A stretch of 64,000 bases of DNA, from positions 539-64,538 of the forward strand of contig JALOCE010000001.1 of the NCBI GenBank assembly GCA_023227925.1, read 5' to 3'. The first letter of the stretch is position 1. Each line of letters opens with the position of its first letter. Position numbers and translations under genes: made by a program. The notes under the pieces were generated by a model, which saw only the letters and a list, made by a program, of their open reading frames with translations, ran no database searches and was not told the origin of the DNA. The DNA comes from Candidatus Omnitrophota bacterium. GTDB lineage: Bacteria > Omnitrophota > Gorgyraeia > Gygaellales > Profunditerraquicolaceae. Shown here in pieces: positions 2,813-30,193 of this stretch.

Positions 2813-3899
<1,087 letters not shown>

Positions 3900-10308: not shown

Positions 10309-10316
10309 AATTTATA

Positions 10317-10562
10317 ATGGAAGAATTAAACAACATTATCAGCCAGGTGTTCGGGATCAAGCAAGACCAGATAAAGGATGAATATGGCCCCAATAATATT
10401 CCTCGTTGGGATTCATTATCGCAGCTTGCTTTGATTTCGGCAATCGAAACTCATTATAAAGTCACGCTGGAGATTGAAGAAATATTTCAGATAATGACCA
10501 TAGGAGATGTCCGTTCTGTCCTGGCAAAGAAATTAAATCAAAATAAGGAAAGTTTAAAATGA
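10317..10562 (+). CDS. Acyl carrier protein
   Basis: The product is 81 aa with a DSLSQLALISAIE phosphopantetheine-attachment motif. Its length and acidity are typical of an ACP. Confidence 0.75.
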   Translation: MEELNNIISQVFGIKQDQIKDEYGPNNIPRWDSLSQLALISAIETHYKVTLEIEEIFQIMTIGDVRSVLAKKLNQNKESLK

Positions 10563-13124: not shown

Positions 13125-14572
13125 GCATGGAAATACATAAGTTTACGGTGAATACAGAGGATACGATATTGCGGACAATGCACGCCATTAATGAGGGCGG
13201 TATTGGCGTCGCGGTTATAGAGGATAAGGATAAAAAATATTTTGGCCTGGTCACGGATGGAGATGTAAGGAGGGCCTTACTTGACGGCGTAGATTTACAT
13301 GAGCCGGTAAAGTCAATTGCCAGAAAAGACGCAGTTACTGCATCGGAGAAGACGTCTTATGAGAGCATCTTTTCTCTGATGAATGAAAAAATCCGCCATA
13401 TCCCCATCATTGATGCAAAGGGAAGAGCAAAAGATCTGGTTTATTTTTCTTATAGAAAAGAGATTCCTGTTGCCAAGCCTTTTTTAAGAGGTAACGAATT
13501 AAAATATGTAACGGAATGTATCCTGGGTAATTGGATATCTTCCCAGGGCAACTATGTAAATGAGCTTGAGAGGCGTTTCTCCGAATTCTGCGGGGTAGAC
13601 TATAGCCTGGCTGTTTCTAATGGCACTGTAGCTTTACATCTTGCCTTAGTTTGTTTAGGTATAAAAAGAGGCGATGAGGTGATCGTTCCTTCGCTTACTT
13701 TTATTGCCACCGCTAATGCAGTGACTTATACAGGGGCAAAACCGGTTTTTGTAGACTCGGAGTGCGATACTTATAATATCGATCCTCGAAAAATTGAAAA
13801 AGCTGTGACTCGCCGCACAAAAGCGATTATCCCGGTCCATCTCTACGGGCAACCGGCAAAGATGGATGAGATCATGGCTATTGCCCGAAAGCATAAAATT
13901 CATGTAGTAGAAGATGCCGCGGAAGCCCATGGCGCTGAGTATAAGCAAAAGAAGGTCGGCTCTATAGGCGATATAGGTTGTTTTAGCTTTTTTGGCAATA
14001 AGATCATAACTACCGGTGAAGGCGGGATGGTAGTTACGAATAATCATAAAATTTATCAGAAGGCCAGGATATTAAGAGACCATGGTATGTCCCTGGAAAA
14101 AAAATATTGGCACGAGCAGGTCGGCTTTAATTATCGGATGACCAATGTCCAGGCAGCTATAGGGTGCGCCCAGATGGAGAAAGTCGAAGTTATTTTAAAA
14201 GAAAAGCAAAAAATTGCCCGGATGTATAAAAAATATCTATCCCCGGATTCCCGTCTTATCCTGCCGCAGGAATTTGACTGGTCAAAAAATGTTTACTGGA
14301 TGTATCCGGTAACTTTTAAGACTACAGGTAAAAATAAGGAGAATGTAAGAAACAAGATCATTGAATTTTTAGCGCAGGATAGCATAGGAGCCAGGCCGTT
14401 CTTTTATCCTATCCATACTATGCCGCCGTATTATTCTAAGTCAAGGCTTCCTGTAGCCGAATCTGTTTCTGAAAACGGGATCGTGCTTCCCGCTTATATG
14501 GGTATGCAGGAAAAAGAGATCCAGAGAATATGTAATTTAATAAAAACTACTTTAGATAAAATATTAAGCTGA
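13121..14572 (+). CDS. CBS-pair domain fused to DegT/DnrJ/EryC1-family PLP-dependent sugar aminotransferase
   Basis: The N-terminal roughly 120 aa carry two CBS-like repeats (GLVTDGDVRRALLDG ... IRHIPIIDAKGRAKDLVY). The remainder has the aminotransferase signature GNWISSQGNYVNELERRFSEFCGVDYSLAVSNGTVALHLAL. Confidence 0.8.
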   Translation: MSMEIHKFTVNTEDTILRTMHAINEGGIGVAVIEDKDKKYFGLVTDGDVRRALLDGVDLHEPVKSIARKDAVTASEKTSYESIFSLMNEKIRHIPIIDAKGRAKDLVYFSYRKEIPVAKPFLRGNELKYVTECILGNWISSQGNYVNELERRFSEFCGVDYSLAVSNGTVALHLALVCLGIKRGDEVIVPSLTFIATANAVTYTGAKPVFVDSECDTYNIDPRKIEKAVTRRTKAIIPVHLYGQPAKMDEIMAIARKHKIHVVEDAAEAHGAEYKQKKVGSIGDIGCFSFFGNKIITTGEGGMVVTNNHKIYQKARILRDHGMSLEKKYWHEQVGFNYRMTNVQAAIGCAQMEKVEVILKEKQKIARMYKKYLSPDSRLILPQEFDWSKNVYWMYPVTFKTTGKNKENVRNKIIEFLAQDSIGARPFFYPIHTMPPYYSKSRLPVAESVSENGIVLPAYMGMQEKEIQRICNLIKTTLDKILS

Positions 14573-14573
14573 G

Positions 14574-16010
14574 ATGAAAAAAAAGGGAAGAGTACTTCTG
14601 ATCGTACACGATGTTTATCAGGATGATAATGTATTTCCTATGGGCGTAGGCTATCTGGCATCTTTTTTGGAAAGAGAAGGAGCAGGCGTAACCGTATATT
14701 CACAGGATGTTTTTCATTATACAAATCAGGATTTAGCTAAATTCCTGCTCGAGAATGAGTTTGATTTAATAGGTGTTGGCTTTCTGGCGGCGAGATTCAA
14801 AGAGACTATTCTCGATCTATGTAAAATCGTAAATGAATGCAAAAAAGATGCTTTTCTGGTGTTAGGTGCCCATGGCCCTTCGCCTATTCCGGAATATATC
14901 CTGGATAAAACCAATGCCGATATCATAGTTATTGGCGAAGCAGAAGAGACAATGGCAGATTTACTTGAATGTAAATTATCCGGTGGCAAAGACCTGCATA
15001 AGATCAGAGGAATAGCGTATAGAAAAAACTCCGTTTGTTGTATCAATCCCAGGCGCACCCCTGTTAAAGATTTGGACTTAATCCCTTTTCCTGCCTGGCA
15101 CTTATTCCCGATTGAGAAATATGCTACTTGTCTTAAGCTCTTTGGCCATAAAGAAACCAATAGATATATGCCTATTATTACAAGCAGGGGCTGCGTCAAT
15201 GAATGCAACTTTTGTTATAGAATCGAAAAGGGGTTCAGGCTAAGAAGCATAGAGAGCATTATCCAGGAAATAAAGATTTTAAATAGCGAATACGGCATAA
15301 ATTATTTTCTTATTTTTGATGAATTATTCCTTATCTCCAAGAAACGCTTGAAAGATTTCAAGGGTGCCTTAGAGAAGAATAACCTTAAAATAGAGTTTTC
15401 TTGCAATGCGAGGGCGGATATCCTGGATGAAGAATCTCTCCGGATGATGAAAGAATGCGGATGCAGATTGATCAGTTTTGGTCTGGAATCGACGGATCAA
15501 AGCGTGCTGAATTTAATGAATAAAAATACTACAGCCGAACAGAATCTTAGAGCGGTAGAATTAACAAAAAAAGCAGGTATTGGCATAGGGTTATGTTTTA
15601 TATGGGGCAACAAAGGGGATAATGAGGCTACTCTTAAGTCAAACCTGGCATTTATAAAGAAGTATAATACCTATGATCAGATCAGGACTATAAGGCCGGT
15701 TACGCCTTTTCCAGGCAGTAAGTTGTATTATGAGGCGATAGAGAATGGGTTATTAGGGGGCCCGGAAGATTTTTTTGCGAAATTTAAGAATTCCGATCTC
15801 CTGACAGTGAATTTTACGAATATACCGGATAAGAATTTTTATGAGCTGCTGTTCGAGGCAAATAGAGAACTTATCCTGGATCATTATAACCATACCGGTG
15901 GAAATACGGAAGCCGCCAATACCCTGATCGATCAATTCCAAAGGTTATATTTTTTAGGCGAGCATAAATTCAGAGGGGCGCGGCATTACAAACGGATAGA
16001 AGTAAAATGA
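14574..16010 (+). CDS. B12-binding (class B) radical SAM protein
   Basis: N-terminal B12-like domain (VLLIVHDVYQDDNVFPMGVGYLASFL) and radical SAM motif ITSRGCVNECNFCYR. Confidence 0.7.
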   Translation: MKKKGRVLLIVHDVYQDDNVFPMGVGYLASFLEREGAGVTVYSQDVFHYTNQDLAKFLLENEFDLIGVGFLAARFKETILDLCKIVNECKKDAFLVLGAHGPSPIPEYILDKTNADIIVIGEAEETMADLLECKLSGGKDLHKIRGIAYRKNSVCCINPRRTPVKDLDLIPFPAWHLFPIEKYATCLKLFGHKETNRYMPIITSRGCVNECNFCYRIEKGFRLRSIESIIQEIKILNSEYGINYFLIFDELFLISKKRLKDFKGALEKNNLKIEFSCNARADILDEESLRMMKECGCRLISFGLESTDQSVLNLMNKNTTAEQNLRAVELTKKAGIGIGLCFIWGNKGDNEATLKSNLAFIKKYNTYDQIRTIRPVTPFPGSKLYYEAIENGLLGGPEDFFAKFKNSDLLTVNFTNIPDKNFYELLFEANRELILDHYNHTGGNTEAANTLIDQFQRLYFLGEHKFRGARHYKRIEVK

Positions 16011-16891
16011 AGATGGATAATAAGATCCAAACCCTGCTTTTTTCATTAGGTATTTGTAGCCGAGACTCGATTGAGCAATTTTATCCTCATGCAAGAGATA
16101 GAGAGGATGTTTCTGTGATGAGATGCAGAAAATCCGGAATAATATTCCTGTCGCGCACGGATCATATAAAAAGTTATTACTATCAGGATCAGAAGGGTTT
16201 TGATTATTGGTCAGCTAAAGATAGAGATAGCGCGATATCAAGTACGATTTCTGATAACCGTAGAAGATTTCGCCAATTTTATGATTTAGTCCGCAATAGA
16301 AAATGGCTGGATTTTGGCACAGGGGCAGGCGGTATTTTAGAATTATTAAGTCCTGTTGCCTTAGAGGCCGTGGCAGTCGAGCCTCAGAAAGAAGCCCGGA
16401 ATATGTTATTAGGTTGCGGCTATAAAGTTTACGCTGATATAGGGGAAGTCCCGGAAGCAGAGTTTGATACAGTGACTTTATTCCATGTTTTTGAGCATCT
16501 TGATGAGCCAATCGAGACGCTTAAGAAAATTGCGCATAAAATAAAGGGAGGAGGAAGGCTGATTATAGAAGTTCCTCATGCTAATGATGCCCTCATCTCA
16601 TTTTTTAAGTTGCGGGATTTCAAGTCTTTTACTTTTTGGAGTGAGCATCTTATTTTGCATACACGGGATAGCTTAAAAATTTTCCTTGAAAATGCTGGTT
16701 TTAAAAATATCCATATCTATGGTTGCCAAAGGTATCCGTTTACTAACCATCTCTACTGGTTGATTACCGGTAAACCAAAGGGCCATCTGGTATGGAAATC
16801 ATTGAGGATCCGGGTATTGGAAAATATATATGCCAAATTGCTTTCGCGTTTTAATAAGACCGATACTTTAATCGCTATTGCGGAAAAATAA
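16007..16891 (+). CDS. Class I SAM-dependent methyltransferase
   Basis: Motif I LDFGTGAGGILE, a FHVFEHLDEP post-motif II region, and GGRLIIEVP. Confidence 0.7.
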   Translation: MKMDNKIQTLLFSLGICSRDSIEQFYPHARDREDVSVMRCRKSGIIFLSRTDHIKSYYYQDQKGFDYWSAKDRDSAISSTISDNRRRFRQFYDLVRNRKWLDFGTGAGGILELLSPVALEAVAVEPQKEARNMLLGCGYKVYADIGEVPEAEFDTVTLFHVFEHLDEPIETLKKIAHKIKGGGRLIIEVPHANDALISFFKLRDFKSFTFWSEHLILHTRDSLKIFLENAGFKNIHIYGCQRYPFTNHLYWLITGKPKGHLVWKSLRIRVLENIYAKLLSRFNKTDTLIAIAEK

Positions 16892-18568
16892 ATGCATCTT
16901 GCCAAAAGAAATAAAATAAACGTGTTGTTTATCAATCTCCCCTATCTTCCTTACGATACTATACTTGAAAAAATACGCAATGAAGATAAGATAGCCCATC
17001 GTTTAGAGATGCCGTTAGGTATCTTGTACTTATCCGCGTATCTGAAAAAACATAATCATCTTTGCGATATCAGGCTCCTGGATTATTCACTGCATATCGA
17101 TGATATCCGCACTTATTCGAATATAGATAATTTTATAAAGTCCCTTGCTAAAAAGGTTGATTTTGTCCCTGATATATTGGCTTTTTCGGCGATGTTTTCG
17201 ACATCGCATCGTTTTTTTGTTGAAACGCTTGATATCCTTAAGTCTCTTTGGCCCAAGGTTACTACCATTGCCGGAGGCAATCACGCTACTAATGCGGTTG
17301 GTAAATTACTAGAATTAGAAAATCTTGATTATGTTGCGATAGGGGAAGCGGAAGCGTCTTTTTCCGAATTCGTCAGTCAAATCGCAGCCTCAAAACAAAT
17401 CAATATCAAAGGCATTTATGCTAAAAAAGATATTCATTCTGCCGCATCTTTTTCAAGCCCCGGTTATATTGAGGACTTGGATAGTTTGCCTTTTCCGGAT
17501 TGGGATCTTTTAAATATGGCGGCTTATATCAATTCTAAGGGGCGAAAGCGGAACATAGGCGAGTCTAAAGAAAGTAGATGCGCCACCATCATGACTAGCA
17601 GGGGCTGCCCTTTTTGCTGTACTTTTTGTGCTGCCCATACGGTTCATGGCCGAAGGGTGCGCTATCGTTCAGTTGAAAATATATTAGAAGAAGTAAAGCT
17701 CCTGTATCGTGCGTATGAAATAACGCTATTTATCCCAGAGGATGATATGTTTACGCAAGATAAACAAAGAACGCTAAATTTACTTTCTGCTTTTAAAGAA
17801 CTTAATATTCCAGGCCTGGAGTTGCAGTTTCCTAATGCGCTGTCTATTAATACTTTAAGCGAAGAAGTATTGGATGCTCTTATTAATTCCGGCATGAAAG
17901 TAGCTTGTCTGGCTATCGAATCAGGGTCTGAATATGTCCAGAAGAATGTTATCAAGAAGAATTGTAATTTAAAAAAAGCTAAAGAATATGTGGAGTATTT
18001 AGGAGATAAAGGGACTATCGTCAGGTGTTATTATATCTTAGGATTCCCCGGAGAGACAAAAGAGCAAATGATGGAGACTGTCGAATATGCCAAATATTTA
18101 AATGCGGACTGGTCAGTATTCAGCATAGCAACGCCTCTATTAGGCTCAGAAATGTACAATCAGTTTTTGCAGATGGGTTGTATAACAGGTGAATTGTATT
18201 GGGGGGTTAACGCCTCCTATGCAAAAAGAAATTTTGATACCAAGGAAATAACCGCCGAAGAATTAAATGCCTTTGCTTATCAGGCGAACATCGATGTAAA
18301 CTTTATTCATAATCCTAATATTGTAAACGGAAATTTTACCCGGGCAATAGAAATTTTTAATGATATCGTCATACATTTTCCTTTTCATATTATTGCCTGG
18401 CATTGTTTAATGCGTTGTTATCAGGGCTTAGGAGATATAGAAAAGGCTAAGGAAATCACCAGGAAGATCGCCGTTTTAATCAATTCCGATAAAAGATCCG
18501 CGGAGATGTTTGCTAAATACGGTCGGCTATTACCTGAATCCTCCGGAGAGGAATTATTAAGAATATGA
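16892..18568 (+). CDS. B12-binding (class B) radical SAM protein with C-terminal helical (TPR-like) extension
   Basis: N-terminal B12-like domain (INVLFINLPY...) and radical SAM motif MTSRGCPFCCTFCAAH. Confidence 0.7.
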   Translation: MHLAKRNKINVLFINLPYLPYDTILEKIRNEDKIAHRLEMPLGILYLSAYLKKHNHLCDIRLLDYSLHIDDIRTYSNIDNFIKSLAKKVDFVPDILAFSAMFSTSHRFFVETLDILKSLWPKVTTIAGGNHATNAVGKLLELENLDYVAIGEAEASFSEFVSQIAASKQINIKGIYAKKDIHSAASFSSPGYIEDLDSLPFPDWDLLNMAAYINSKGRKRNIGESKESRCATIMTSRGCPFCCTFCAAHTVHGRRVRYRSVENILEEVKLLYRAYEITLFIPEDDMFTQDKQRTLNLLSAFKELNIPGLELQFPNALSINTLSEEVLDALINSGMKVACLAIESGSEYVQKNVIKKNCNLKKAKEYVEYLGDKGTIVRCYYILGFPGETKEQMMETVEYAKYLNADWSVFSIATPLLGSEMYNQFLQMGCITGELYWGVNASYAKRNFDTKEITAEELNAFAYQANIDVNFIHNPNIVNGNFTRAIEIFNDIVIHFPFHIIAWHCLMRCYQGLGDIEKAKEITRKIAVLINSDKRSAEMFAKYGRLLPESSGEELLRI

Positions 18569-19518
18569 ACAATAATAAAAAGTGTTTAGTAGTCGGGTTT
18601 GGTTCTGCAGGCGCAAGACATACCAGGAATGCTGAATCTCTTGGTTACGAGGTCGCGCTAGTCACTTCGCAAAAAGTTAAAAAACATAAATGCTATTTTG
18701 ATATTGCCAAGGCAATAGCTATGGAAAAACCGAAATTTGCAGTGATTGCTTCTCCTACCTATAAACATGTAAAGGAATTAAGGCAATGTATTTTGCATAA
18801 TGTACCGGCCCTGGTAGAGAAACCCCTGGCGATTAACCATTCGGAATTTAGAAATAAGATAGGTACAGATAGTATTAAAACAGGTAATTATCGTGTTGGC
18901 TATTGCCTGCGTTATCATCCTATGATTTTAGATTTAAAGCGCCGGATAAGTTCTCTTGGGCCTCTTTATAATGCAAATATTGTTTTTGGGCAATATCTGC
19001 CGATATGGCGTCCATGGAGAGATTATCGTAAGAGTTATAGCGCTTCCTTTAAGAAAGGCGGCGGCGTCCTCTTGGATTCTTCGCATGAGATAGATTTAAT
19101 CACGTATCTGTTCGGGCCGGTAAAAAAGCTGGTTGCTGTTTCTAAAAAAGTAAGTTCCTTAAAGATAGATAGTGATGATATATGCCTCCTGATTTGCCAG
19201 ATGCGTTCAGGCGGATTTGTGCAGGTTACCCTGGATTATTTGAATCGTATCCCGGAACGCAGGATAGTTATAAACGCTAAAAAAGGAAGCGTGCATTTGG
19301 ATTTAATACGGGGTAAGTGGTGTTCCCAGGTTGGTTCCGCGGTAAAAAATATACCGTATAGCGTGGAAAGAAATAAGCTGTTTCTTCAGGAATTAGATGA
19401 TTTTATTAATCGGCCTAAGCGGTGTTTGCTGCCGGATTTAAAAGAATCAGAAGTAACTTTGAGGATAATCGAGGCAGTGCGTAAGTCAGCGCAAAAAGGG
19501 AAATGGATAGAGCTATGA
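18565..19518 (+). CDS. Gfo/Idh/MocA-family NAD(P)-dependent oxidoreductase
   Basis: N-terminal Rossmann motif KCLVVGFGSAGARH, the EKPLA motif, and overall length consistent with the family. Confidence 0.6.
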   Translation: MNNNKKCLVVGFGSAGARHTRNAESLGYEVALVTSQKVKKHKCYFDIAKAIAMEKPKFAVIASPTYKHVKELRQCILHNVPALVEKPLAINHSEFRNKIGTDSIKTGNYRVGYCLRYHPMILDLKRRISSLGPLYNANIVFGQYLPIWRPWRDYRKSYSASFKKGGGVLLDSSHEIDLITYLFGPVKKLVAVSKKVSSLKIDSDDICLLICQMRSGGFVQVTLDYLNRIPERRIVINAKKGSVHLDLIRGKWCSQVGSAVKNIPYSVERNKLFLQELDDFINRPKRCLLPDLKESEVTLRIIEAVRKSAQKGKWIEL

Positions 19519-20207
19519 AAATATTATGTATTATCTGCGCAAGGGCCGGCTCAAAGGGCCTGCCGGGTAAGAATATACGTTCTTTGCTGGGTAAACCTTT
19601 AATCGCGCATACTATCAAGCAGGCGATTTCCTCAGGTTTATTTGAGCATGTTGTAGTCAGCACTGATTCTTCCAGGATTGCCGGTATCGCTAAAAAATAT
19701 AAAGCGGAAGTACCTTTTTTGAGGCCAAAGAAGCTTGCCGGAGATACGTGCCCGAAATTACCATCTATAAGGCATGCGTTGCTTGAATGCGAAAAGTTAT
19801 TTAATACAAAATTTGATATTATTGTTGATCTTGATCCTACTTCGCCGTTAAGAACAATAGAAGATATCAGGAATTGCGTAGAGATTTTAATAAAGAAGCA
19901 TGCTAGTAATGTGATTACTGCTATGCCTGCCAGGAGGTCCCCTTATTTTAATTTGATAGAGATCTATCCAGGCGGCCGTATCGGATTATCCAAAAAAACT
20001 AAGCCGCCGATTACCTGCCGGCAAAACTCTCCGAAGTGTTTTGATATGAATGCTTCTATCTATGCCTGGAAGAGACAGGCATTATTGAAAAATGATAGCT
20101 TATTTTTGAAGAAAACTGCGCTTTATGTGATGCCGGAAGAACGCTCTATTGATATTGACAATGAAATTGATTTTAAGTTTGTGGAGTTTTTAGCCAACAG
20201 GCACTAA
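19503..20207 (+). CDS. CMP-nonulosonic acid synthetase (acylneuraminate cytidylyltransferase family, NeuA-like)
   Basis: N-terminal motif ILCIICARAGSKGLPGKNIRSLLGKPLIAHTI. A possible alternative start lies at 19515. Confidence 0.8.
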   Translation: MDRAMKILCIICARAGSKGLPGKNIRSLLGKPLIAHTIKQAISSGLFEHVVVSTDSSRIAGIAKKYKAEVPFLRPKKLAGDTCPKLPSIRHALLECEKLFNTKFDIIVDLDPTSPLRTIEDIRNCVEILIKKHASNVITAMPARRSPYFNLIEIYPGGRIGLSKKTKPPITCRQNSPKCFDMNASIYAWKRQALLKNDSLFLKKTALYVMPEERSIDIDNEIDFKFVEFLANRH

Positions 20208-20219
20208 ATTTATCAAACT

Positions 20220-21569
20220 ATGAAAAAAGTCGCAATTTTTATATTAAGGAATAATCAACTTAGGAATTTTCTGCCGGTTATCAAAGAAATGCTTTTAAGC
20301 GGCAGGATAGTCCCTGTGTTAATTACCACGAAGACTATGAATATCGGAATAAGAGCGGCACAGAATTATGATCCTGCCTTGAATCCTTTTCATGATCAAA
20401 TGGAGGTCCATTATATTGAGCATATAGATGAGATATCCGCTTTATTAGAGAGATTAGATATAAAAGTGCTTTTTAGCAATATCATTTTACCTTTTTTGTC
20501 GAATCTGGATTACGAAAATAACAGCGGGTCTGGTTTATTGAGAAGATTAAAAGAAAAAGGCATCAAATATATTCTATTACAATATTGCACTGAAGAAGTA
20601 GCGAACCTGCCAAAATTATTTTCTCGCGAATCCTTGGATTTAGTGAGCGGTTTTTTGTGCCAGAGCCAGTATTGGCTAGAGAGTATGGTTGAGGCATTTG
20701 CGCGGCAACTTAAACTTTCAGAGGAGGATATCCTGGGAATACGGAATAAGTCTTTTGTAGTAGGATGGGCCGAACTAGACGGTGTTAAAGGATTAGATAA
20801 AGAAGCAATCCTGGGAAAATACGGTTTAAAGAAAGGAAAAAAAATAGTTTTTTTTGATCCGGTAGGGAATGTCAATCATGTCCCCAATTTTTTATATAAA
20901 TACCATTTTTGCATGAGCCAGACAGGTAAAAAAAAGCTATTAAGGATGTTGCGTAATTTAAGCGGGGATATATGGATTTCTCCCGGGATGCTTTGGAAAC
21001 TTCCTTCTTACCTGAAGGCCCTCATTGCCTATCGAAAAGTGCCGAATTATGAGGCATTATTTTTTAACCTTCAAAAATTCTGTAAGGAAAACGATTACCT
21101 ATTGATTTGTAAATCACGGGAAAAAAATAATGATGGAGATTTTATAAAATCCGGATGTGATTTATATACTTACGATAGAAGCTATCTTCCTTTTACCCTT
21201 CTTGAGTTATTATCCATTTCTAATGTTTATGTGGGATTTAATAGTTTTTCGACTGTAGAGGCGGCATATTTTAGGCTGCCGGTCTTATCTATCAACATCT
21301 TTCTCGCTAAATATGAATTCAGGGAATATGGCGGAAAAGCATATCAATACATCGAAGAATGTTTTGATACTCCGGGCGAATGGTTGAATTTTCCCGGTGT
21401 CAACCAGGTCTATCGTTTATACAGGGATAGGATAGATTTTGCTAAAGCGATTAGCGGATTGAAAACTAATCCCCAAAGCCAGGATGAATATATCGCCAAA
21501 TTTATTGGTTCCGAGGATGGAAAAAGCAGCAAACGGATCCTTGATGTAATAGAAGAAAAATTTCTTTAA
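20220..21569 (+). CDS. Hypothetical protein, paralogue 1 of an uncharacterised family (possible GT-B-like / capsule-type sugar transferase)
   Basis: This 449-aa product is clearly homologous to the 448-aa product of 22413-23759, sharing MKK.A.F.LR..QLR..LP.I.EML.SGR..PVLITTKTMN.G..AAQNYDP..NPFHD.ME.HY throughout. There is no canonical motif. A C-terminal YVGFNS...E.....LPVLSI segment is reminiscent of a GT-B C-domain. Confidence 0.4.
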   Translation: MKKVAIFILRNNQLRNFLPVIKEMLLSGRIVPVLITTKTMNIGIRAAQNYDPALNPFHDQMEVHYIEHIDEISALLERLDIKVLFSNIILPFLSNLDYENNSGSGLLRRLKEKGIKYILLQYCTEEVANLPKLFSRESLDLVSGFLCQSQYWLESMVEAFARQLKLSEEDILGIRNKSFVVGWAELDGVKGLDKEAILGKYGLKKGKKIVFFDPVGNVNHVPNFLYKYHFCMSQTGKKKLLRMLRNLSGDIWISPGMLWKLPSYLKALIAYRKVPNYEALFFNLQKFCKENDYLLICKSREKNNDGDFIKSGCDLYTYDRSYLPFTLLELLSISNVYVGFNSFSTVEAAYFRLPVLSINIFLAKYEFREYGGKAYQYIEECFDTPGEWLNFPGVNQVYRLYRDRIDFAKAISGLKTNPQSQDEYIAKFIGSEDGKSSKRILDVIEEKFL

Positions 21570-21581
21570 AAGGAAGGCCTT

Positions 21582-22406
21582 ATGAAAAAAAATAAAGGAA
21601 ATAAATTTTCTTTATCCGGAAAGACCGCTATTGTCACCGGCGCTTTAGGTTTATTAGGCAGGAATTTTTGTTTTGGGTTAGCAGAGGAGGGAGCGGATAT
21701 AGCAGCAGTGGATTTAAATCCGGAAGAATGCGCAAGATTTGCGCTGAAGTTGAAGAAAAAATATCAGGTTAAGGCTGCGGGATTCCATTGTGATGTTGCG
21801 GATGCGCTTTCAGTCTCCGAGATGGCGGAGAGCGTAAAAAACAAATTTGGCAGGATCGATATTTTGATAAATAGTGCTTGTTATCGTTCGCAAAACCCTA
21901 AGTTGCTGCACGCGCGTTTTGAAGACTATTCGCCAGAAGAATGGCAAAGGATGATGGAGGTAAATGTGACCGGGGTGTTTTTGTGTTCGCAGGCGGCCGG
22001 TAAGGTCATGCTTAAACAAAACTCCGGAGGCTCGATAATCCAAATTTCTTCAATATATGGCCTGTTAGGCACAGACCACAGGATCTATAAAAAATCAGAT
22101 GCTCCAGGCAAAAGGACTAATAATCCTGCTGTGTATTCGGCTTCCAAAGGGGCAGTGATCAGTTTAACTAAATACCTGGCTAGTTATTGGGCAGATAAAG
22201 GGATCAGGGTAAATGTTATTTCTCCCGGAGGGGTAGAGAATAAGCAGGATAAATATTTTATACAGGCCTACTCCAGCCGGGTCCCGATGCAAAGAATGGC
22301 AAAAGCAAAAGAATTAGTTGGTGCTTTAATTTATTTAGCTTCTGATGCGTCAAGCTATGTAACCGGGCAGAACATTATAGTTGATGGAGGCCTTAGCATC
22401 TGGTAA
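21582..22406 (+). CDS. Short-chain dehydrogenase/reductase (SDR)
   Basis: TAIVTGALGLLGRNF glycine-rich motif and YSASKGAV catalytic YxxxK motif. Confidence 0.8.
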   Translation: MKKNKGNKFSLSGKTAIVTGALGLLGRNFCFGLAEEGADIAAVDLNPEECARFALKLKKKYQVKAAGFHCDVADALSVSEMAESVKNKFGRIDILINSACYRSQNPKLLHARFEDYSPEEWQRMMEVNVTGVFLCSQAAGKVMLKQNSGGSIIQISSIYGLLGTDHRIYKKSDAPGKRTNNPAVYSASKGAVISLTKYLASYWADKGIRVNVISPGGVENKQDKYFIQAYSSRVPMQRMAKAKELVGALIYLASDASSYVTGQNIIVDGGLSIW

Positions 22407-22412
22407 AGGAAT

Positions 22413-23759
22413 ATGAAAAAAATAGCTTTTTTTGTCTTAAGGATTAGCCAGCTAAGGGTTTTATTACCGATTATAGAAGAGATGCTATCAAGCGGGAGGA
22501 TGATCCCCGTATTGATCACCACTAAAACCATGAATTTCGGAATGAAGGCAGCGCAGAACTATGATCCTTCTTTTAATCCATTTCATGACCGGATGGAGAT
22601 CCATTATGTCGATAATTTCGGTGAGATACCCGTAATTATGGATAAAAATAATATAAAGATTCTGCTTAGCAATATCCTCTTGGCATTTTCAAGTAGTGAG
22701 AATAACGATGGTTCTGCGTTGCTAAAGAGCCTTAAGGAGAGGGGGGTCAAGTTTTTTTATCTAGAATCTACCCATGATGCGATATGCGTATTGCCTGAAA
22801 TCCTGAGTTTCGATTGTTTTAGGCTGGTTGACGGATTTTTTTGTTTGAGCGAATACTGGAAAGAGGGCATAGTCAGCGCCCTTAAAAGAAAGTTTAAGCT
22901 TACAGACAGCGAAATTATGGAACTTAGTAAGAAGTTCTACGTCGTGGGATGGCCCGAGCTCGATAGTGTAGAGAAACTTGACAAAAAAGCAATCCTGGAA
23001 AAATACAGGCTTACGAACATCAAAAAAATGATAGTTTTTTTCGACCCGGTGGGGAACGTTAACTACGTCCCGAATTTTTTTTACAAGTATTATTTCCGGA
23101 TCTTTGGATCAAAAAAGGAAAAAATATTACGGTTCCTGAAAAATTTGTTAATCGATATGTACTCTTCTCCTAAGATTTTTTGGAAACTGCCTTTTTACCT
23201 GAAAGCCTATTTAACTTATCGAAAAATACCGAATTACCAGGAGTTATTTTTTAGCTTAAAAAAGTTTTGTCAAGATAATGACTACCTCTTGATTTGTAAA
23301 TCCAGAGAAAAGAATAATGATCCCGATTTTATAAAAACCGGTTGCGATCTTTATACTTATGACCGGGGGTATTTGCCTTTTACCCTTCTTGAATTGATGT
23401 GTATTTCCGATGTCTATGTAGGTTTTAATAGCTCATCCATTATGGAAGCCGTGTATTGTAAATTACCGGTTTTATCGATCCATGTTTTCCCCATGAGATA
23501 CCAATTCTCTGATTATAGGGGCAATATCTACGAATATTTAGAAGAATGCTTCAATTCACCGGGCGAGTTCCTGAATTTTCCCGGGGTTAATCGCGTTTTT
23601 TTTCTTTATAAGCAAAAAATAGATTTCAAAGAGGCTTTTAAGGGCCTGAAGCTTGATCCTCAACGCCGTGATGATTATGTGGCGAAGTTTATCGGCTTTA
23701 TGGACGGCAAGAGCAGTAACCGTATTTTAAATATATTAGAAGAAAATTTCCTTTCGTGA
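22413..23759 (+). CDS. Hypothetical protein, paralogue 2 of the same uncharacterised family as 20220-21569
   Basis: Homologous to the product of 20220-21569 along its whole length. Confidence 0.4.
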   Translation: MKKIAFFVLRISQLRVLLPIIEEMLSSGRMIPVLITTKTMNFGMKAAQNYDPSFNPFHDRMEIHYVDNFGEIPVIMDKNNIKILLSNILLAFSSSENNDGSALLKSLKERGVKFFYLESTHDAICVLPEILSFDCFRLVDGFFCLSEYWKEGIVSALKRKFKLTDSEIMELSKKFYVVGWPELDSVEKLDKKAILEKYRLTNIKKMIVFFDPVGNVNYVPNFFYKYYFRIFGSKKEKILRFLKNLLIDMYSSPKIFWKLPFYLKAYLTYRKIPNYQELFFSLKKFCQDNDYLLICKSREKNNDPDFIKTGCDLYTYDRGYLPFTLLELMCISDVYVGFNSSSIMEAVYCKLPVLSIHVFPMRYQFSDYRGNIYEYLEECFNSPGEFLNFPGVNRVFFLYKQKIDFKEAFKGLKLDPQRRDDYVAKFIGFMDGKSSNRILNILEENFLS

Positions 23760-23765
23760 AAATTA

Positions 23766-25100
23766 ATGAAGAATAAACTCGCTTTAGTTTTTTGCGTGCA
23801 TCATAAGCCATGGTTGGTGATGTCTACTCTAATCACGACTATGGCACAGGATTTTAAAGATTTTGATATTTTTTTTATCCATCAGAAAGGCGATGGTACG
23901 ACAGCGCAAAGCCGGCTTTATAAAGAATATTTTGATGAGTATTATTCTTTAGCGAAAAAATACAATATAAATAGCCAGCTTGATCCTTACGATCCGAGGA
24001 CTGTCGAGGTATGCAGGATGGGAAGGGCAAATACTTATGAGGTTTTTTTTGAAAATGACCATGCCTTGGACTCCGGAGCCTGGTATAAATTCATCAGGTC
24101 CGGTTTATGGAAAGACTACGAATACTTGATTTTTGCCGGCGAAGGGATTTTGTTTACCGGAGAAACTGTTTTTTCTGACACGTTAAGGTTTGCCAAACAA
24201 TACGGCGCCCATTTTATTACCGCTTCGCATGCAAAAAGGCGTATCCCGAAAGACAGGTTTTTTGGCAATTTTGCCAGTTTTAAAAATAAAACCGAAATGA
24301 ATTCTTTTCACGACAAGATGATAAAGGAATCCCTGGCGGTGTTTTGCAGAGATCGCGTTTTCAAAGAAAAATTAGATTTATGCAGGTCTGATTTTCAAAC
24401 AGAACAGCAGAATCATGTCCCGGATATTTGGGGGCATGATGGTTTATGGATGCGCGCGGTTAATTTATTTTATCCTAACGTCAAAAATTTTAAAGGGCCT
24501 ATCCAGAAACAATTTATTGCAAGCCTTAACGGGACTTTTTTCTTATGGATTAAAACTCAGGCGCTTTTAAGTATTTTTTTTAGAGAGCATTTCGGTATGT
24601 TTTATAGTAAAGGCTGTCTGAAAAGGGATGACGATTATATTTATACCAGCGGGGGAAGAAGGAGATTACAGGATACAGTTTCTTATTCAAGCGAAGGGGC
24701 GCTAAAATTCCATCGCTCTGGCGATCCTGAATGGTATGGCGCCAGCTGCAGCCATTTTGTAAGCAGGGAATTTTTAGAAAGATTTTCCTGGAAATTAGAA
24801 GAATATAAGATCTATGATGTAATCGAATTGCCATTTTCCGCCACGTCATTAGAGGTAATTTGGGGATTGATTCCTTTATGGTTAGGTTTTGACAAGTGGT
24901 TTTTTAACGGTATGCACCGCGTGCATAAAAATTTTGTTAACTATAGGAGAGAAGATAACGCTAGGGATATGGCGCGCTATATTAACCGTTATTATCAAGG
25001 CAGGCTCTATGTTGATTATCAAGACGATTACCTTAAGATAAAAAAATATAGCAGAGATTTTAAGAATTTAAAAGAATATTTTAACGAACTTTATTTTTAA
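23766..25100 (+). CDS. Hypothetical protein (no recognisable domain)
   Basis: A long ORF with good coding periodicity, embedded in the operon. There are no motifs I can assign. Confidence 0.5.
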   Translation: MKNKLALVFCVHHKPWLVMSTLITTMAQDFKDFDIFFIHQKGDGTTAQSRLYKEYFDEYYSLAKKYNINSQLDPYDPRTVEVCRMGRANTYEVFFENDHALDSGAWYKFIRSGLWKDYEYLIFAGEGILFTGETVFSDTLRFAKQYGAHFITASHAKRRIPKDRFFGNFASFKNKTEMNSFHDKMIKESLAVFCRDRVFKEKLDLCRSDFQTEQQNHVPDIWGHDGLWMRAVNLFYPNVKNFKGPIQKQFIASLNGTFFLWIKTQALLSIFFREHFGMFYSKGCLKRDDDYIYTSGGRRRLQDTVSYSSEGALKFHRSGDPEWYGASCSHFVSREFLERFSWKLEEYKIYDVIELPFSATSLEVIWGLIPLWLGFDKWFFNGMHRVHKNFVNYRREDNARDMARYINRYYQGRLYVDYQDDYLKIKKYSRDFKNLKEYFNELYF

Positions 25101-25101
25101 A

Positions 25102-26058
25102 ATGATCCGGTTAAAAAAACAATACGAAGGAAAATCCGCCGTAGTTATTATGGGAGGACCTTCTATAATAGAGAATAACCTTGATTTGGGCTTAATAGAC
25201 AAAAATAAGTATACTATTTTTTTAGAATCCAAGTCTTTGACTCCGTATTTTTTAAGTTATAAGCTTATTCCCGACTTTTTTTTGATGTTTTTTCCGGAGA
25301 AATGCCACGCTAATGCCTTGCAGCAGGTAATATACCAGTCTTTGCTAGCCGGCATAGATTTATCAAGGCTTTTAAAGCCGGATTATCTCCGGCAATACTA
25401 CGATTTGAAAGATAATTTCGATAATTATTTTGAGGTATGGAATCCCGAAAGGAGCCCGCATAAAAAATATAAATTTAAAAACCATGTAGTATTGGAGAAT
25501 TCGCCTTTCTCTCTGCTCCCGGAATTACCTAATACAGCTATAATTACGCGGATAAAATCCGAAGAAAGGTTTGCTTATTTAAATAAGCTTAAGAACGAAA
25601 GATTTGTTTATGGCGACAGGCTTATAAAAGAAAATTTCCAGTTGGAAAAGTATTTTAATCCCGAAGAGGTTAACGGTTGCCTTATGTTGAACGGCTATGG
25701 CTCCGTTAATTCTGCGGCTATTGCTTTATTTCCCATTTTAAATTATATGGGTTTTAAAAAGATATACTTTATCGGTATGGATATGTCTATGCTGGGAAGC
25801 CTTGAATACAGCTCATTGTATACTTTCCGCTCCTTAAGGCATTATGCCAAGTTTTTCAAAAAAGCAAGAGCTGTTTTTAATTTCAATTTTATAGAAAATA
25901 AGAAGAAATTTATGCGTCCTCCTTATGAATTTGAAAACTTTAAGCAGATATTCAGATACGACAAAATAGAATTTATTAATATATTCGAGCCGTTTGAATT
26001 TGCGCTCCCATTGGAAGGCATGCGCCATATTACTTTTTACGAATTTCTCAATGAATAA
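25102..26058 (+). CDS. Possible DUF115 / MptE-like (Maf-like) protein, a candidate nonulosonic-acid transferase
   Basis: A GKSAVVIMGGPSI segment and a later GYGSVNSAAIALFPILNYMGFKKIYFIGMDMS segment resemble the conserved cores of the MptE-like/Maf family. The assignment is tentative. Confidence 0.4.
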   Translation: MIRLKKQYEGKSAVVIMGGPSIIENNLDLGLIDKNKYTIFLESKSLTPYFLSYKLIPDFFLMFFPEKCHANALQQVIYQSLLAGIDLSRLLKPDYLRQYYDLKDNFDNYFEVWNPERSPHKKYKFKNHVVLENSPFSLLPELPNTAIITRIKSEERFAYLNKLKNERFVYGDRLIKENFQLEKYFNPEEVNGCLMLNGYGSVNSAAIALFPILNYMGFKKIYFIGMDMSMLGSLEYSSLYTFRSLRHYAKFFKKARAVFNFNFIENKKKFMRPPYEFENFKQIFRYDKIEFINIFEPFEFALPLEGMRHITFYEFLNE

Positions 26059-27121: not shown

Positions 27122-27790
27122 GTGAATAATACAGATATTGGAGTATGGTCGTGCGCCCGTACATCAAGCAAGCGCTGCCCGGAAAAAATGGTCCGTTCAT
27201 TCCACGATACTACTTTGACGGATATTTTTTTAGCGAAGCTCTCAAAATTAAAAAATAATGTTTTTTTTGCAGGTTTTGAAAGTATATTTAAAGAGAAATG
27301 CCAGAAGTACGATGTTACTTTTGTGCAGAGGTCGTACGAGTCTGCGAATGTCGATGAGCCGGCAGCTAAAATATACGAATTTCTTTTATCCCAGCCTTAT
27401 GATTATTTTTTACAGGTTAATGCCTGCGCTCCTTTCTTGAAAGTGGATACTATCGTTAATTTCCTTAAAGAATGTACCCATGATAGAAGGCCAAGTTTTG
27501 CTGTGGTCAAAAAAAAGAATTATTTAGTCCATCCTAACGGAGAGCCTATAAATTGGAGCCGCGGCATCACTACGATAAACACCAAAAAAGTAGATTATGT
27601 GTATGAATTTGCGCATCTGTTTTATTTTTTTAAAAAAACATATTTTGCAGAACATGGCTGGTATTGGGATTGGAATGACCTGCGTTATATAGAGATACCC
27701 GAAGGCTTAGAAGTTTTTGATATTGATACTGAAGAACAGTTTTTAATGGCAGAGTCTATCTGGAAGGATCGGAATTATCCTAAAATGTAA
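27122..27790 (+). CDS. Hypothetical protein with weak similarity to the N-terminus of acylneuraminate cytidylyltransferases
   Basis: GTG start. A CARTSSKRCPEK segment resembles the ARxxSKxxPxK motif of CMP-NeuAc synthetases. Nothing else supports the call, so this is a low-confidence, divergent paralogue. Confidence 0.3.
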   Translation: MNNTDIGVWSCARTSSKRCPEKMVRSFHDTTLTDIFLAKLSKLKNNVFFAGFESIFKEKCQKYDVTFVQRSYESANVDEPAAKIYEFLLSQPYDYFLQVNACAPFLKVDTIVNFLKECTHDRRPSFAVVKKKNYLVHPNGEPINWSRGITTINTKKVDYVYEFAHLFYFFKKTYFAEHGWYWDWNDLRYIEIPEGLEVFDIDTEEQFLMAESIWKDRNYPKM

Positions 27791-27808: not shown

Positions 27809-30193
27809 ATGAAGATGAAAAAAAATATAATTATAGGCGCAGGGCCGGCAGGCTTAGCTACCGGTTTGGGGCTGGTTGAGCGCTCTGTCGAGACAGAAAT
27901 ATATGATGCCGGGATCGTGCCCGGCGGCTTAGCAGCCAGTGAATCGATAGACGGTATGGTTTTTGATTACGGCCCCCATATTTTTCATACGCACGACGAG
28001 GAAATGAAAAAACTATGGCTGGATTATTTTGCGGATTTGCTGGTCGAAAAGGAATTTTATTCGAAAAATTACAAGGATGGTATTTTTTATGATTATCCAT
28101 TATCTTATGAGTCGATCAGTAAGTTTCCCTCCAAAATAAAAGATCAGGTGCAGAAAGAACTTAAGGAGCGGAAGCCGGAGAATCTAAAGCGAGCCCAGAA
28201 TTTCAAGGAATGCTTGATTGCTATCCTCGGGCCTACCTTACAGGAGCTGTTTTTTGAGAAATATACTAAAAAACTCTGGGGCATATCTCCCGAAGATATG
28301 TCTACAAATTGGGCTCCTAAAAGGATAGAGATACGTAAAAAATATACTTCGTTCTGGCACAACCAGTTTTCAGCGGCTGCAAAATACGGCTCGGGAAGCG
28401 TGATGCAGCGTATAGCCGATAAAATCATAGCAAAAGGAGGAAAGGTTTTTTTAAGGCATAAAGTAACAAAATTGTTCTTGGAAGATTCGCGGATAAAAAA
28501 AATATTTTTTGAAAACGGCAAAGCTATTGATACCGAAGACGCGATTGTCATCTCGACAATACCGCTTGATCGCCTTTGTGATACCCTGGGAATAAAATGC
28601 ACCCTTGATTTTAATTCGATTATAATAGTATATTTAGTTTTTAATAAAGAATATATTTTGCCCGAAGGGGTCCAGTCTGTTTATTTCGCTCATGACGATT
28701 GCTATTTTCATCGCGTATCGGAACAGAAGAAGTTCAGCGATATAGGTTACCCCAAGGGCAAGACAATGCTTACTTTTGAGATTTCGTATAATAACAAGCC
28801 ATTTTTAGCCGAAATGGATGAGGAGAGATTGGTCAGGGAAACTTTGTCTCAGTTCTCCGCTTTCGGCTTGGCAAAGGAGAAAGATTTCGTAAAGGGGTTT
28901 ACTAGAAGATTCACTTCGGTAAACCCGATCTTAAAATATGCATACGAAGGCGAGTTGATGCGGGTTAATTCTATCTTAAGCTTGATTAAAAATTTACATA
29001 CAGTAGGCGGCAGCGCAGAATTCATTTACGGCGATATGCAGGTAATGTTTTCTAAGGCCAGGGATATTGTTGATTTATTGACATCGGAGCATTATGTGAT
29101 CAATAAAAATATTAAATCAGGCGAGCAATTCAGATTTAATGAAGAGGTCCAAATATGCGATTATAAGGTAGGAAAGGAGAATCCTACGTTGATCATCGCC
29201 GAGATGGGGATCAACCATAATGGCGATGTGAATTTGGCTAAACAGCTTATCTCTGAGGCGAAAAGATGCGGCTGTGAAGTCGTTAAATTACAGACTTTTT
29301 CAGCTGAGGCCAGAGTTTCGAAGACCGCCAAAAATGCAAAATATGCAGATAAAACGCTGGATATGGAAGAGACTCCGTATGAGACCTTTAAGAGGCTAGA
29401 GCTTTCCCGGGAAGATCACAAAATTTTATTTGATTATGCCAAAGATATCAAGATGCCGCTTATATCCACTCCATTCAGCGAAAGCGATGTCGATCTATTA
29501 TGCGAGCTTGGCGTAAAGGCTTTTAAAATAGCTTCCTTTGATTTAGTCAATTTGCCATTTTTACGGTATGTGGCTTCTAAGAGGCTGCCTATTATTCTTT
29601 CCTGCGGCATGAGCGGAATGGCTGAAATTGAAGAGGCGCTGGAGACTATCGCATTAGAAGAGAATCCAAATGTAGTCTTGCTGCATTGTGTTTCTTCTTA
29701 TCCTGCCGATCCCAAAGATGCTAATCTTCGTGCGATGCATACCATGAGGCAGGCCTTTAAAGTCCCGGTGGGCTATTCCGACCATTCGATCAGCCAGCTG
29801 GTTGCTATTATGAGCATGACATTGGGCGCGCATATACTTGAGCGCCATTTTACTTTAAATAAGAAGTTCGAAGGTACAGACCATATTCTTTCTTCCACTC
29901 CGGAAGAGATGGCCCAGTTAGTAGATGACCGTAATAGCATTTATAGCGCGTTAGGTAGCGGTATCAAGAAGCAAAAGCCTGTTGAGTATGGTACGATAAA
30001 TAAACAGAGAAAAAGCATTTTTACTACTAAACCTATAAAATCTGGCGAGAAGATCACTCTCGATAATATTACTATTAAAGGCCCCGGCCATGGTATTCTG
30101 CCGCGATATATCCATCTTATTCTAGGTAAACGGGTGGCTAAGCGCGTTAATGCCGATAGCCCGTTGACCTGGGATGATTTACTCATAAGTTAA
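27809..30193 (+). CDS. Fusion: UDP-galactopyranose mutase-like FAD domain (N-terminal, about 430 aa) plus NeuB-family nonulosonic acid synthase domain (C-terminal)
   Basis: N-terminal IIIGAGPAGLATGL dinucleotide motif and FDYGPHIFHTHDEE (UGM hallmark YGPHIFHT), with a later GGSAEFIYGDMQV segment. The C-terminal half has IIAEMGINHNGDVNLAKQLISEAKRCGCEVVKLQTF plus a SAF-like end. An AGGAGG RBS precedes the start. Confidence 0.75.
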   Translation: MKMKKNIIIGAGPAGLATGLGLVERSVETEIYDAGIVPGGLAASESIDGMVFDYGPHIFHTHDEEMKKLWLDYFADLLVEKEFYSKNYKDGIFYDYPLSYESISKFPSKIKDQVQKELKERKPENLKRAQNFKECLIAILGPTLQELFFEKYTKKLWGISPEDMSTNWAPKRIEIRKKYTSFWHNQFSAAAKYGSGSVMQRIADKIIAKGGKVFLRHKVTKLFLEDSRIKKIFFENGKAIDTEDAIVISTIPLDRLCDTLGIKCTLDFNSIIIVYLVFNKEYILPEGVQSVYFAHDDCYFHRVSEQKKFSDIGYPKGKTMLTFEISYNNKPFLAEMDEERLVRETLSQFSAFGLAKEKDFVKGFTRRFTSVNPILKYAYEGELMRVNSILSLIKNLHTVGGSAEFIYGDMQVMFSKARDIVDLLTSEHYVINKNIKSGEQFRFNEEVQICDYKVGKENPTLIIAEMGINHNGDVNLAKQLISEAKRCGCEVVKLQTFSAEARVSKTAKNAKYADKTLDMEETPYETFKRLELSREDHKILFDYAKDIKMPLISTPFSESDVDLLCELGVKAFKIASFDLVNLPFLRYVASKRLPIILSCGMSGMAEIEEALETIALEENPNVVLLHCVSSYPADPKDANLRAMHTMRQAFKVPVGYSDHSISQLVAIMSMTLGAHILERHFTLNKKFEGTDHILSSTPEEMAQLVDDRNSIYSALGSGIKKQKPVEYGTINKQRKSIFTTKPIKSGEKITLDNITIKGPGHGILPRYIHLILGKRVAKRVNADSPLTWDDLLIS

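Follow-up and report, generated by a model that had tools for sequence, protein, structure and literature searches.

To our knowledge, the transfer of pseudaminic acid (Pse), legionaminic acid (Leg), and related nonulosonates (NulO) is the least-known step of the pathway, with experimental support only for Maf, FlmG, the Tannerella forsythia enzymes, and KpsS1 of glycosyltransferase (GT) family GT118. This study concerns two homologous open reading frames (ORFs), ORF A and ORF B, on contig JALOCE010000001.1 of a Candidatus Omnitrophota bacterium. They lie within a surface-glycan locus that fills the 64-kb stretch analyzed (the window), with its genes all on one strand. Both belong to an uncharacterized protein family, here named X, for which a GT-B fold was predicted. 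On balance, with a probability of roughly 0.55, ORF A and ORF B are GT-B transferases that move the CMP-activated NulO of the surrounding cassette onto a lipid-linked glycan.

In T. forsythia, knockouts of BFO_1060-family genes lost the terminal Pse or Leg derivative of the O-glycan and kept the CMP-NulO pool, and complementation was strain specific (PMC5420450). The T. forsythia transferases Tanf_01245 and TFUB4_00887 share an identical C terminus of 245 aa and carry C-terminal HP and D/E-D/E-G motifs (PMC5420450). A further set of enzymes, in families GT99, GT107, GT118, and GT140 (WbbB, KpsC/KpsS, the Acinetobacter baumannii Pse transferase KpsS1, and KrkA), makes capsule or O-antigen from ulosonic acids (Kdo, Pse) supplied in CMP-activated form; their folds are derived from GT-B, the Rossmann domain at the N terminus being strongly reduced (PMC12887879). 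The teichoic acid enzymes TagF and TagB (PF04464; TagF structures 3L7I-3L7M) have a GT-B-like fold, as predicted for X; their donors release CMP, and they are peripheral membrane enzymes with lipid-linked acceptors.

Comparison of family X with described systems

Like the T. forsythia enzymes, ORF A and ORF B are predicted to be GT-B/TagB-like, are free of transmembrane segments, and are encoded beside NulO biosynthesis genes. The T. forsythia enzymes act on a glycan and not on flagellin, and the same role is proposed for X. The distribution of variability is also alike, the Pse versus Leg specificity of the T. forsythia pair lying in the N-terminal part and ORF A and ORF B being variable at the N-terminal end and conserved at the C-terminal end. 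However, the match to these enzymes covers ~250 residues, and ORF A and ORF B, at 448 to 449 aa, exceed the ~365 positions of the model and contain a basic insertion of 73 residues. Also unlike the T. forsythia enzymes, they are without HP, and D/E-D/E-G is not conserved.

The comparison with TagF was similarly divided. Its two histidines, known from PDB titles as H444N and H548A and presumably catalytic, have no conserved counterpart in X, and CDP-glycerol synthesis genes are absent from the locus. UDP-GlcNAc 2-epimerases, including the hydrolyzing NeuC and LegG, provided the top global structural match, share a common GT-B-type architecture with X, and are normal components of NulO clusters; unlike them, X has a basic insertion of membrane type and occurs in loci without NeuB. 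The GT99, GT107, GT118, and GT140 enzymes, which we take to be marked by HP and QxxxKD motifs, differ from X in that the X model has two full Rossmann domains and the sequence no HP. The likeness to capsule Kdo transferases suggested in the first-pass annotation was not borne out, as no Pfam match to the KpsC/KpsS family (PF05159) was obtained at E ≤ 0.1 and none of the group appeared among the top 50 Foldseek matches. Likewise, ORF A and ORF B gave no Pfam matches to the sialyltransferases of GT38, GT52, and GT80, whose HP and D/E-D/E-G motifs are not conserved in them. The Maf or MptE-like (PF01973) flagellin NulO transferases, a candidate member of which is encoded in the same cassette, have the same presumed job and are unrelated to X in fold and family.

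Family X is therefore outside the BFO_1060 family, PF04464, Epimerase_2, the HP-motif sialyltransferases, and GT99/GT107/GT118/GT140, a defining feature being missing each time. By analogy, its nearest functional counterparts would be TagF and the NulO transferases of T. forsythia, all of them GT-B enzymes releasing CMP at the membrane surface.

Predicted fold and remote relatives

ORF B was modeled with AlphaFold2 from an alignment of 11 sequences, which gave a predicted local distance difference test score (pLDDT) of 85.2 and a predicted template modeling (TM) score of 0.86. The model consisted of two Rossmann-like halves, with strand-helix alternation in both. When the model was searched against the PDB with Foldseek, 264 matches were obtained at E ≤ 0.001, and the top 50 were all GT-B proteins. 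The list was led by UDP-GlcNAc 2-epimerases (E about 1e-10, target-normalized TM score up to 0.65), with NeuC at 1.4e-9 and the teichoic acid polymerase TagF at 1.5e-8 (query-normalized TM score of 0.50 to 0.53). The prediction of a GT-B fold for family X is thus solid at the level of the model, as anticipated by the first-pass annotation, which had proposed looking for a fold of two Rossmann domains. Sequence-based searches of solved structures were less productive: a profile from the close alignment gave no match, a single-sequence search gave only noise, and a profile from the broad alignment gave one match, to a GT28 glucosyltransferase (1.7e-5). An integral membrane protein was ruled out by the absence of a transmembrane segment.

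The close family is small, comprising 12 clusters among 5.8 billion proteins. Scanning 185,579 species genomes with its alignment yielded a single locus, to which the JGI metagenomes added four, and a tblastn search of plasmids returned nothing. For the broad family, an exhaustive hidden Markov model (HMM) search of a 1.8-billion-protein library gave 516 representative clusters at E ≤ 1e-3 and 322 at E ≤ 1e-10; a repeat homology search with the broad alignment recovered essentially the same proteins, and cluster look-ups for its distant members led only to short contigs without informative names. No Pfam model exists for the family, none of its members is characterized, and the failure of the first-pass annotation to place ORF A and ORF B in a known family was mirrored by a Pfam-A scan, in which neither had a match at E ≤ 0.1.

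To define remote affinities, 98 members of the broad family were scanned individually against each model. The commonest match was to NF046086, the “BFO_1060 family glycosyltransferase,” found for 51 of the 98 (best 3.4e-15), followed by PF04464 of the TagF type with 18 (best 5.8e-8), NeuC (TIGR03568) with 5 (best 8e-5), and Epimerase_2 (PF02350) with a single member (best 1e-3). One member matched the TarF model and none matched PseG. NF046086 was also the sole NCBIfam family matched by the window proteins themselves, at 4e-8 and 32.8 bits over residues 162 to 444 for ORF B and at 2.4e-4 and 20.4 bits for ORF A. Because scores of 33 and 20 bits compare with a cutoff of 200 bits, ORF A and ORF B were considered remote relatives of the BFO_1060 family and not members of it. 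Neither protein matched PF04464 at E ≤ 0.1, for which a homologue from P0006 has a faint precomputed match, and neither matched PF02350 or TIGR03568.

Conserved residues and a basic insertion

Across the 98 sequences, the near-invariant residues were G179, D184, K296, R298, K300, D312, P322, S340, and E345 (ORF B numbering), and position 122 was acidic in 90. Every near-invariant residue is retained in both window copies. Three of them form a basic K-S-R-x-K cluster, in which K296 was kept in 97 of the 98 sequences of the broad alignment and R298 and K300 in 92 each. Since HP-type enzymes carry their motif at the same place, after strand 2 of the C-terminal domain, this cluster is proposed to be the site that binds the nucleotide phosphate. 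S340 (95/98) and E345 (89/98) fall within a second motif, which aligns with the equivalent helix of the GT28 transferase and of Epimerase_2. The histidine of an “LQH” motif was shared by roughly half the broad-family members and by neither ORF A nor ORF B, and [DE][DE]G was absent from ORF B and occurred in ORF A at one nonconserved C-terminal site.

The insertion lies between strands 1 and 2 of the C-terminal Rossmann domain and is modeled as helices spanning residues 222 to 288 of ORF B. In all 17 of 17 close homologues, the block corresponding to ORF B residues 216 to 290 had a net charge of +4 to +13, with the remaining protein near neutral. It is 16 to 27% aromatic, with a hydrophobic moment of 0.42 to 0.69 and no transmembrane segment. 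These properties point to a membrane-surface enzyme with a lipid-linked acceptor rather than a soluble enzyme of precursor formation.

Association with NulO genes and with unk444

The co-occurrence with neuA/neuB-type genes that had been suggested as a check was found in the wider family, a CTP_transf_3 gene lying within 10 kb of X in 9 of the 11 independent loci with adequate flank. In the window, the CTP_transf_3 gene for cytidylyltransferase 1 is directly upstream of ORF A. The first-pass annotation, which had placed the two ORFs directly after a CMP-NulO synthetase gene, was therefore right as to adjacency; as to function, the top NCBIfam model for this enzyme was PseF (TIGR03584; 2.9e-41, 141.5 bits), with the equivalog cutoff of 205.7 not reached.

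Around X, a recurrent block was observed that contained a cytidylyltransferase, a short-chain dehydrogenase/reductase (SDR), X, the gene here called unk444, optionally a methyltransferase, an MptE-like protein, a second cytidylyltransferase, a second NeuB, and an ATP-binding cassette (ABC) exporter. The full block recurs in L004, L005/L010, L006, L011, and the P0006 contig, and the short contigs L008, L012, and L013 retain the part of it around X. The SDR precedes X throughout the close family, with orthologues of 45 to 63% identity directly upstream in L004, L005, L006, L008, L010, L011, and L012.

A different arrangement was found in L003, a 386-kb contig of a metagenome-assembled genome (MAG). 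There the gene order is GFO, Epimerase_2 (2.8e-74), acetyltransferase, DegT, dehydratase-type SDR, X, and cytidylyltransferase, which constitutes a Leg-type cluster with neither unk444 nor MptE. The X protein of this cluster has 30% identity and scored 399 bits against the broad-family HMM. In the P0009 locus, L001, a Wzy-type locus, the region at 7474-11320 contains an X protein 38% identical to ORF B together with a cytidylyltransferase and, instead of NeuB, an HpcH/HpaI-type aldolase. The sugar made there may be another 3-deoxy-ulosonic acid, formed by the aldolase and likewise CMP activated.

The most regular partner of X was unk444, which adjoins it in 10 independent loci and the P0006 contig. 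It has no Pfam or NCBIfam match. Its AlphaFold2 model (pLDDT 91.6) matched SpsA, TarP, and TarS in Foldseek at ~1e-5 over about 160 residues, and the C-terminal half had no structural match in that search. The unk444 family comprises >171 clusters, many labeled Candidatus Omnitrophota. In two Omnitrophota-type MAGs (L014 and L016), unk444 is immediately preceded by a member of the broad X family (E = 1e-105) with an identity of only ~22%, and the order is MptE-like, cytidylyltransferase 2, X, unk444, short NeuB, GT2, and ABC. The two genes are also neighbors in L015, where the glycan locus has no NulO genes within 10 kb. X and unk444 thus resemble a conserved pairing of a GT-B with a GT-A protein that is usually, although not always, inside a NulO module.

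Proposed mechanism

That ORF A and ORF B are glycan-assembly transferases, the narrower claim, is probable. In the mechanism that we infer for the family, which extends to the identity of the donor, the roles of residues, the association with the membrane, and a division of labor between ORF A and ORF B, the C-terminal Rossmann domain would bind the nucleotide, with the S340/E345 helix contacting the ribose and K296-x-R298-x-K300 the phosphate. The latter would replace the His-Pro motif that sialyltransferases and TagF carry. The acceptor hydroxyl would be acted on by an acidic residue of the interdomain cleft, with D/E122, D184, and D312 as candidates. The basic amphipathic insertion would keep the enzyme on the cytoplasmic face of the membrane beside an undecaprenyl-linked acceptor, and X would work with the adjacent GT-A-like unk444 on a glycan built and exported by the rest of the 64-kb locus. 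The two copies probably use related donors on different acceptors or handle two different NulO derivatives.

As a broader and tentative proposal, which is possible but doubtful, X and unk444 would constitute a previously undescribed two-enzyme module that adds nonulosonic acids to lipid-linked glycans, with an HP-less GT-B enzyme binding CMP through K-x-R-x-K in place of an otherwise universal His-Pro motif, and would be widespread in uncultured bacteria, particularly Candidatus Omnitrophota. What is new here is an unmodeled and uncharacterized GT-B family that lacks HP and is accompanied by a conserved GT-A-like protein; nothing in it contradicts expectation. Few NulO transferases are known, and further families of them continue to be defined. 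Because the HP motif used to recognize CMP-sugar enzymes is absent, motif-based searches would miss X. If the donor assignment is true, X would represent a new glycosyltransferase (CAZy) family with a new way of recognizing CMP-sugars, would offer access to sialylation-like surface-glycan chemistry in uncultured phyla, and could supply enzymes for the chemoenzymatic synthesis of heavily modified NulO, the cassette having several B12-radical S-adenosylmethionine (SAM) and methyltransferase genes. If the donor is ordinary, X would be one more divergent GT-B enzyme in a polysaccharide locus.

Evidence against the NulO donor and alternative functions

Several observations weigh against the NulO donor assignment. 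The HP motif, which is present in sialyltransferases, TagF, Kdo transferases, and BFO_1060 proteins and had been set as a test for CMP binding in the first-pass annotation, is absent from ORF A and ORF B, and there is no conserved HP column among the 98 sequences. Nor is there a C-domain histidine that is common to ORF A and ORF B or conserved in the family. The NF046086 and PF04464 scores are far under their thresholds, so that function is transferred over remote homology, and transferase activity cannot be deduced from the fold by itself because the closest structural matches are UDP-GlcNAc 2-epimerases. In terms of gene context, the glycan loci that hold the distant X members of L009 and L015 lack NulO genes within 10 kb, the short contig L007 shows no NulO genes, and in L017 unk444 adjoins a short NeuB with no X. 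The MptE-like protein of the cassette is, from its sequence, a candidate Maf-type NulO transferase, either as a rival of X or in addition to it. There is also a precedent in Bacillus subtilis, where SpsB, which is TagB-like and encoded beside CMP-Leg genes, was dispensable for Leg transfer (PMC7439481). The designation of ORF A and ORF B as prime candidates for the missing NulO transferases thus gained support from the remote NF046086 affinity and the linkage to NulO genes, but the MptE/Maf-like and GT-A-like proteins are candidates as well.

In an alternative reading, X would be a genuine GT-B glycan transferase that acts as a unit with unk444 on another donor, either an NDP-sugar or a CDP-alditol phosphate, and the MptE/Maf-like protein would transfer the NulO. 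The strongest association of X is indeed with unk444 and not with NulO genes, and the L015 pair and the lone X of L009 are consistent with such a donor, as are the absence of HP, the conservation of the MptE-like protein in the cassette, the SpsB precedent, the weak PF04464 matches in 18 of the 98 members, and the single TarF match. However, no gene for CDP-glycerol or CDP-ribitol supply (PF01467, or clear IspD/TarI type) was found among the window ORFs scanned, both cytidylyltransferases being of the CTP_transf_3 type. The curated family most commonly matched is one of NulO transferases, and the frequent proximity of CTP_transf_3 genes also argues for a NulO donor. Furthermore, in the Leg-type cluster of L003, which lacks both unk444 and MptE, X is flanked by the dehydratase and cytidylyltransferase genes. 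A non-NulO donor was therefore considered rather unlikely.

It is less probable still that X is the missing nucleotide-sugar hydrolase or hydrolyzing 2-epimerase (NeuC/LegG/PseG-like), a “masked” GT-B protein that frees the hexosamine for NeuB. The epimerases, including NeuC, do head the Foldseek list, NeuC was weakly matched by 5 of the 98 members, and in L014 X forms with the second NeuB, the second cytidylyltransferase, and the MptE-like protein a tidy NeuC/NeuB/NeuA/transferase quartet. In addition, neither the NulO part of the window nor the cassettes of L004 to L006 and L011 were found to contain Epimerase_2, PseG, or an obvious 4,6-dehydratase, and Epimerase_2 was absent from the whole 64 kb. 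Because the dehydratase is also missing from the window, the early pathway steps are probably encoded elsewhere. In L003, moreover, X and a genuine Epimerase_2 occur together, so that the slot is already filled, and hhalign of the X profile against this Epimerase_2 gave a probability of 25%, with the generic C-domain aligned and the catalytic N-domain unaligned. Epimerase_2 was matched by one broad-family member, compared with the far larger numbers for the BFO_1060 and TagF types. X was found with no NeuB within 10 kb in L001, L003, L009, and L015, and the short NeuB occurs without X in L017. A basic amphipathic insertion would also be unexpected in a soluble biosynthetic enzyme.

Duplication of X in the window

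As the first-pass annotation had described, ORF A and ORF B are homologous over their full length, with near-identical N termini, and are separated by the SDR gene alone. In BLASTP, they had 59% identity and 79% positives end to end (E = 0). The intergenic spacers around them are 6 to 12 nt. In the close-family tree, the two group as sisters, and the duplication was therefore taken to be lineage specific. Related loci carry a single X gene, after the SDR, and none at the position of ORF A, from which it follows that ORF B is the positional orthologue and ORF A the extra copy. At the DNA level the copies are 65.5% identical, with no conversion tracts; recent gene conversion was ruled out, the longest identical run being 17 nt. 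A pseudogenized duplicate was also ruled out, since both ORFs are intact with their conserved residues kept and ORF A recurs in another sample.

The divergence is unevenly distributed. The donor-side core (residues 291 to 360) is 79% identical between ORF A and ORF B, compared with only 41% for N-domain residues 61 to 175, and the two proteins therefore probably differ in acceptor or in NulO derivative. That one copy, most likely ORF A, is a decaying or noncatalytic duplicate with no independent function is very improbable: two copies are found only in the lineage of the window, the ORF A branch is slightly longer, and both copies lack the “LQH” histidine, but ORF A is full length with the near-invariant G, D, K-x-R-x-K, D, P, S, and E kept, lies close to its operon neighbors, with spacers of 12 nt, has a copy of 98% identity in the independent second sample P0002, and diverges from ORF B mainly in the N-domain cleft, a pattern of subfunctionalization and not of decay.

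Other genes of the locus

The coordinates of the features discussed are collected in Table 1. NulO module 1 contains genes for a hexapeptide acetyltransferase, NeuB, a TIM-barrel protein, a CBS-DegT aminotransferase, two B12-radical SAM enzymes, a methyltransferase, and a GFO/IDH/MocA oxidoreductase. The DegT-type aminotransferase (13121-14572) has its CBS domain at the N terminus, a fusion that is kept in L004, L005, L006, and L011. Downstream of the MptE-like gene, a sugar O-methyltransferase-like ORF (25994-27103) is listed with a TTG start and overlaps that gene by 65 nt, on which grounds its true start is probably further downstream. The second NeuB of the window is part of a fusion of 794 aa, in which a flavin adenine dinucleotide (FAD) amine-oxidase/UDP-galactopyranose-mutase-like domain is joined to a NeuB synthase with a SAF domain. 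Elsewhere (L004, L005, L014, L016, and L017), the second NeuB is a short stand-alone protein of ~240 aa with no SAF domain. The ABC exporter is a candidate flippase for the lipid-linked glycan. The region further downstream encodes numerous GT1, GT2, and methyltransferase proteins, two Wzy_C proteins, WecG/TagA, and an initiating phosphoglycosyl transferase of the Bac_transf type. As judged from its gene content, the window is a locus for lipid-linked glycan assembly.

Table 1. Positions of the genes, modules, and protein segments discussed in the text
Feature	Position	Strand	Description
NulO module 1	10559..19518	+	Assigned by Pfam; orthologous and syntenic in L004, L005, L006, L011
Cytidylyltransferase 1	19503..20207	+	CMP-nonulosonate synthetase-like; CTP_transf_3 6.9e-25; directly upstream of ORF A
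ORF A	20220..21569	+	449 aa, ATG start; extra lineage-specific paralogue in GT-B family X, between cytidylyltransferase and SDR
SDR	21582..22406	+	adh_short_C2 1e-57; sole gene between ORF A and ORF B
ORF B	22413..23759	+	448 aa, ATG start; positional orthologue of family X (SDR-X-unk444 arrangement), predicted GT-B fold
ORF B residues 218-290	23064..23282	+	73-residue amphipathic helical insertion, putative membrane-surface anchor; ORF A equivalent 20877-21095
ORF B K296-S-R298-E-K300	23298..23312	+	Basic cluster after C-domain strand 2 (strand residues 291-297); ORF A equivalent 21111-21125
ORF B Y335-VGFNSSSIMEA-346	23415..23450	+	Putative nucleotide-ribose-binding helix of GT-B C-domain; ORF A equivalent 21228-21263
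unk444	23766..25100	+	444 aa, partner of X; predicted GT-A (GT2-like) N-terminal domain; invariant D98...D102
unk444 relative, L004	11424-12761
unk444 relative, L014	10001-11266
unk444 relative, L015	10001-11362
MptE-like (DUF115/Maf-type) protein	25102..26058	+	318 aa; PF01973 1.1e-8, 35.4 bits against cutoff of 34.6; conserved in cassette
Cytidylyltransferase 2	27122..27790	+	Divergent; CTP_transf_3 1.8e-7; 45-53% identical orthologues in L004, L005, L006, L014, L016
FAD amine-oxidase/GLF-like domain fused to second NeuB	27809..30193	+	NeuB 4.6e-84, Amino_oxidase 3.8e-17, GLF 3.5e-10
ABC exporter	30204..32093	+	Fused transmembrane and nucleotide-binding domains; ABC_membrane and ABC_tran; 39-56% identical orthologues in L005, L011, L014, L016

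Four B12-binding radical SAM enzymes are encoded in the window (3970-5463, 14574-16010, 16892-18568, and 54405-56585), two of them inside the NulO module and one fused to a class I methyltransferase. Along with the more than 10 SAM methyltransferases of the locus, they suggest that the sugars are C- and O-methylated to an unusually high degree.

Upstream of the NulO module are tandem GalT/HIT-like nucleotidyltransferases (771-1796 and 1797-2792), followed at 2850-3899, 6611-8515, and 8469-10308 by genes for a GAPDH-like dehydrogenase, a helix-turn-helix-fused AMP-binding (acyl-adenylate) enzyme, an inositol-monophosphatase-family protein, and a PdxA-family dehydrogenase. The genes upstream of the module may provide a route to an unusual N-acyl substituent, for example, of the glyceroyl type. 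Two ORFs inside the glycan locus, at 51251-52948 (565 aa) and 56605-58506 (633 aa), had no Pfam match at E ≤ 0.01. A comparable GAPDH-like gene is found in L005, with an acyl carrier protein, and in L011, with an AMP-binding enzyme.

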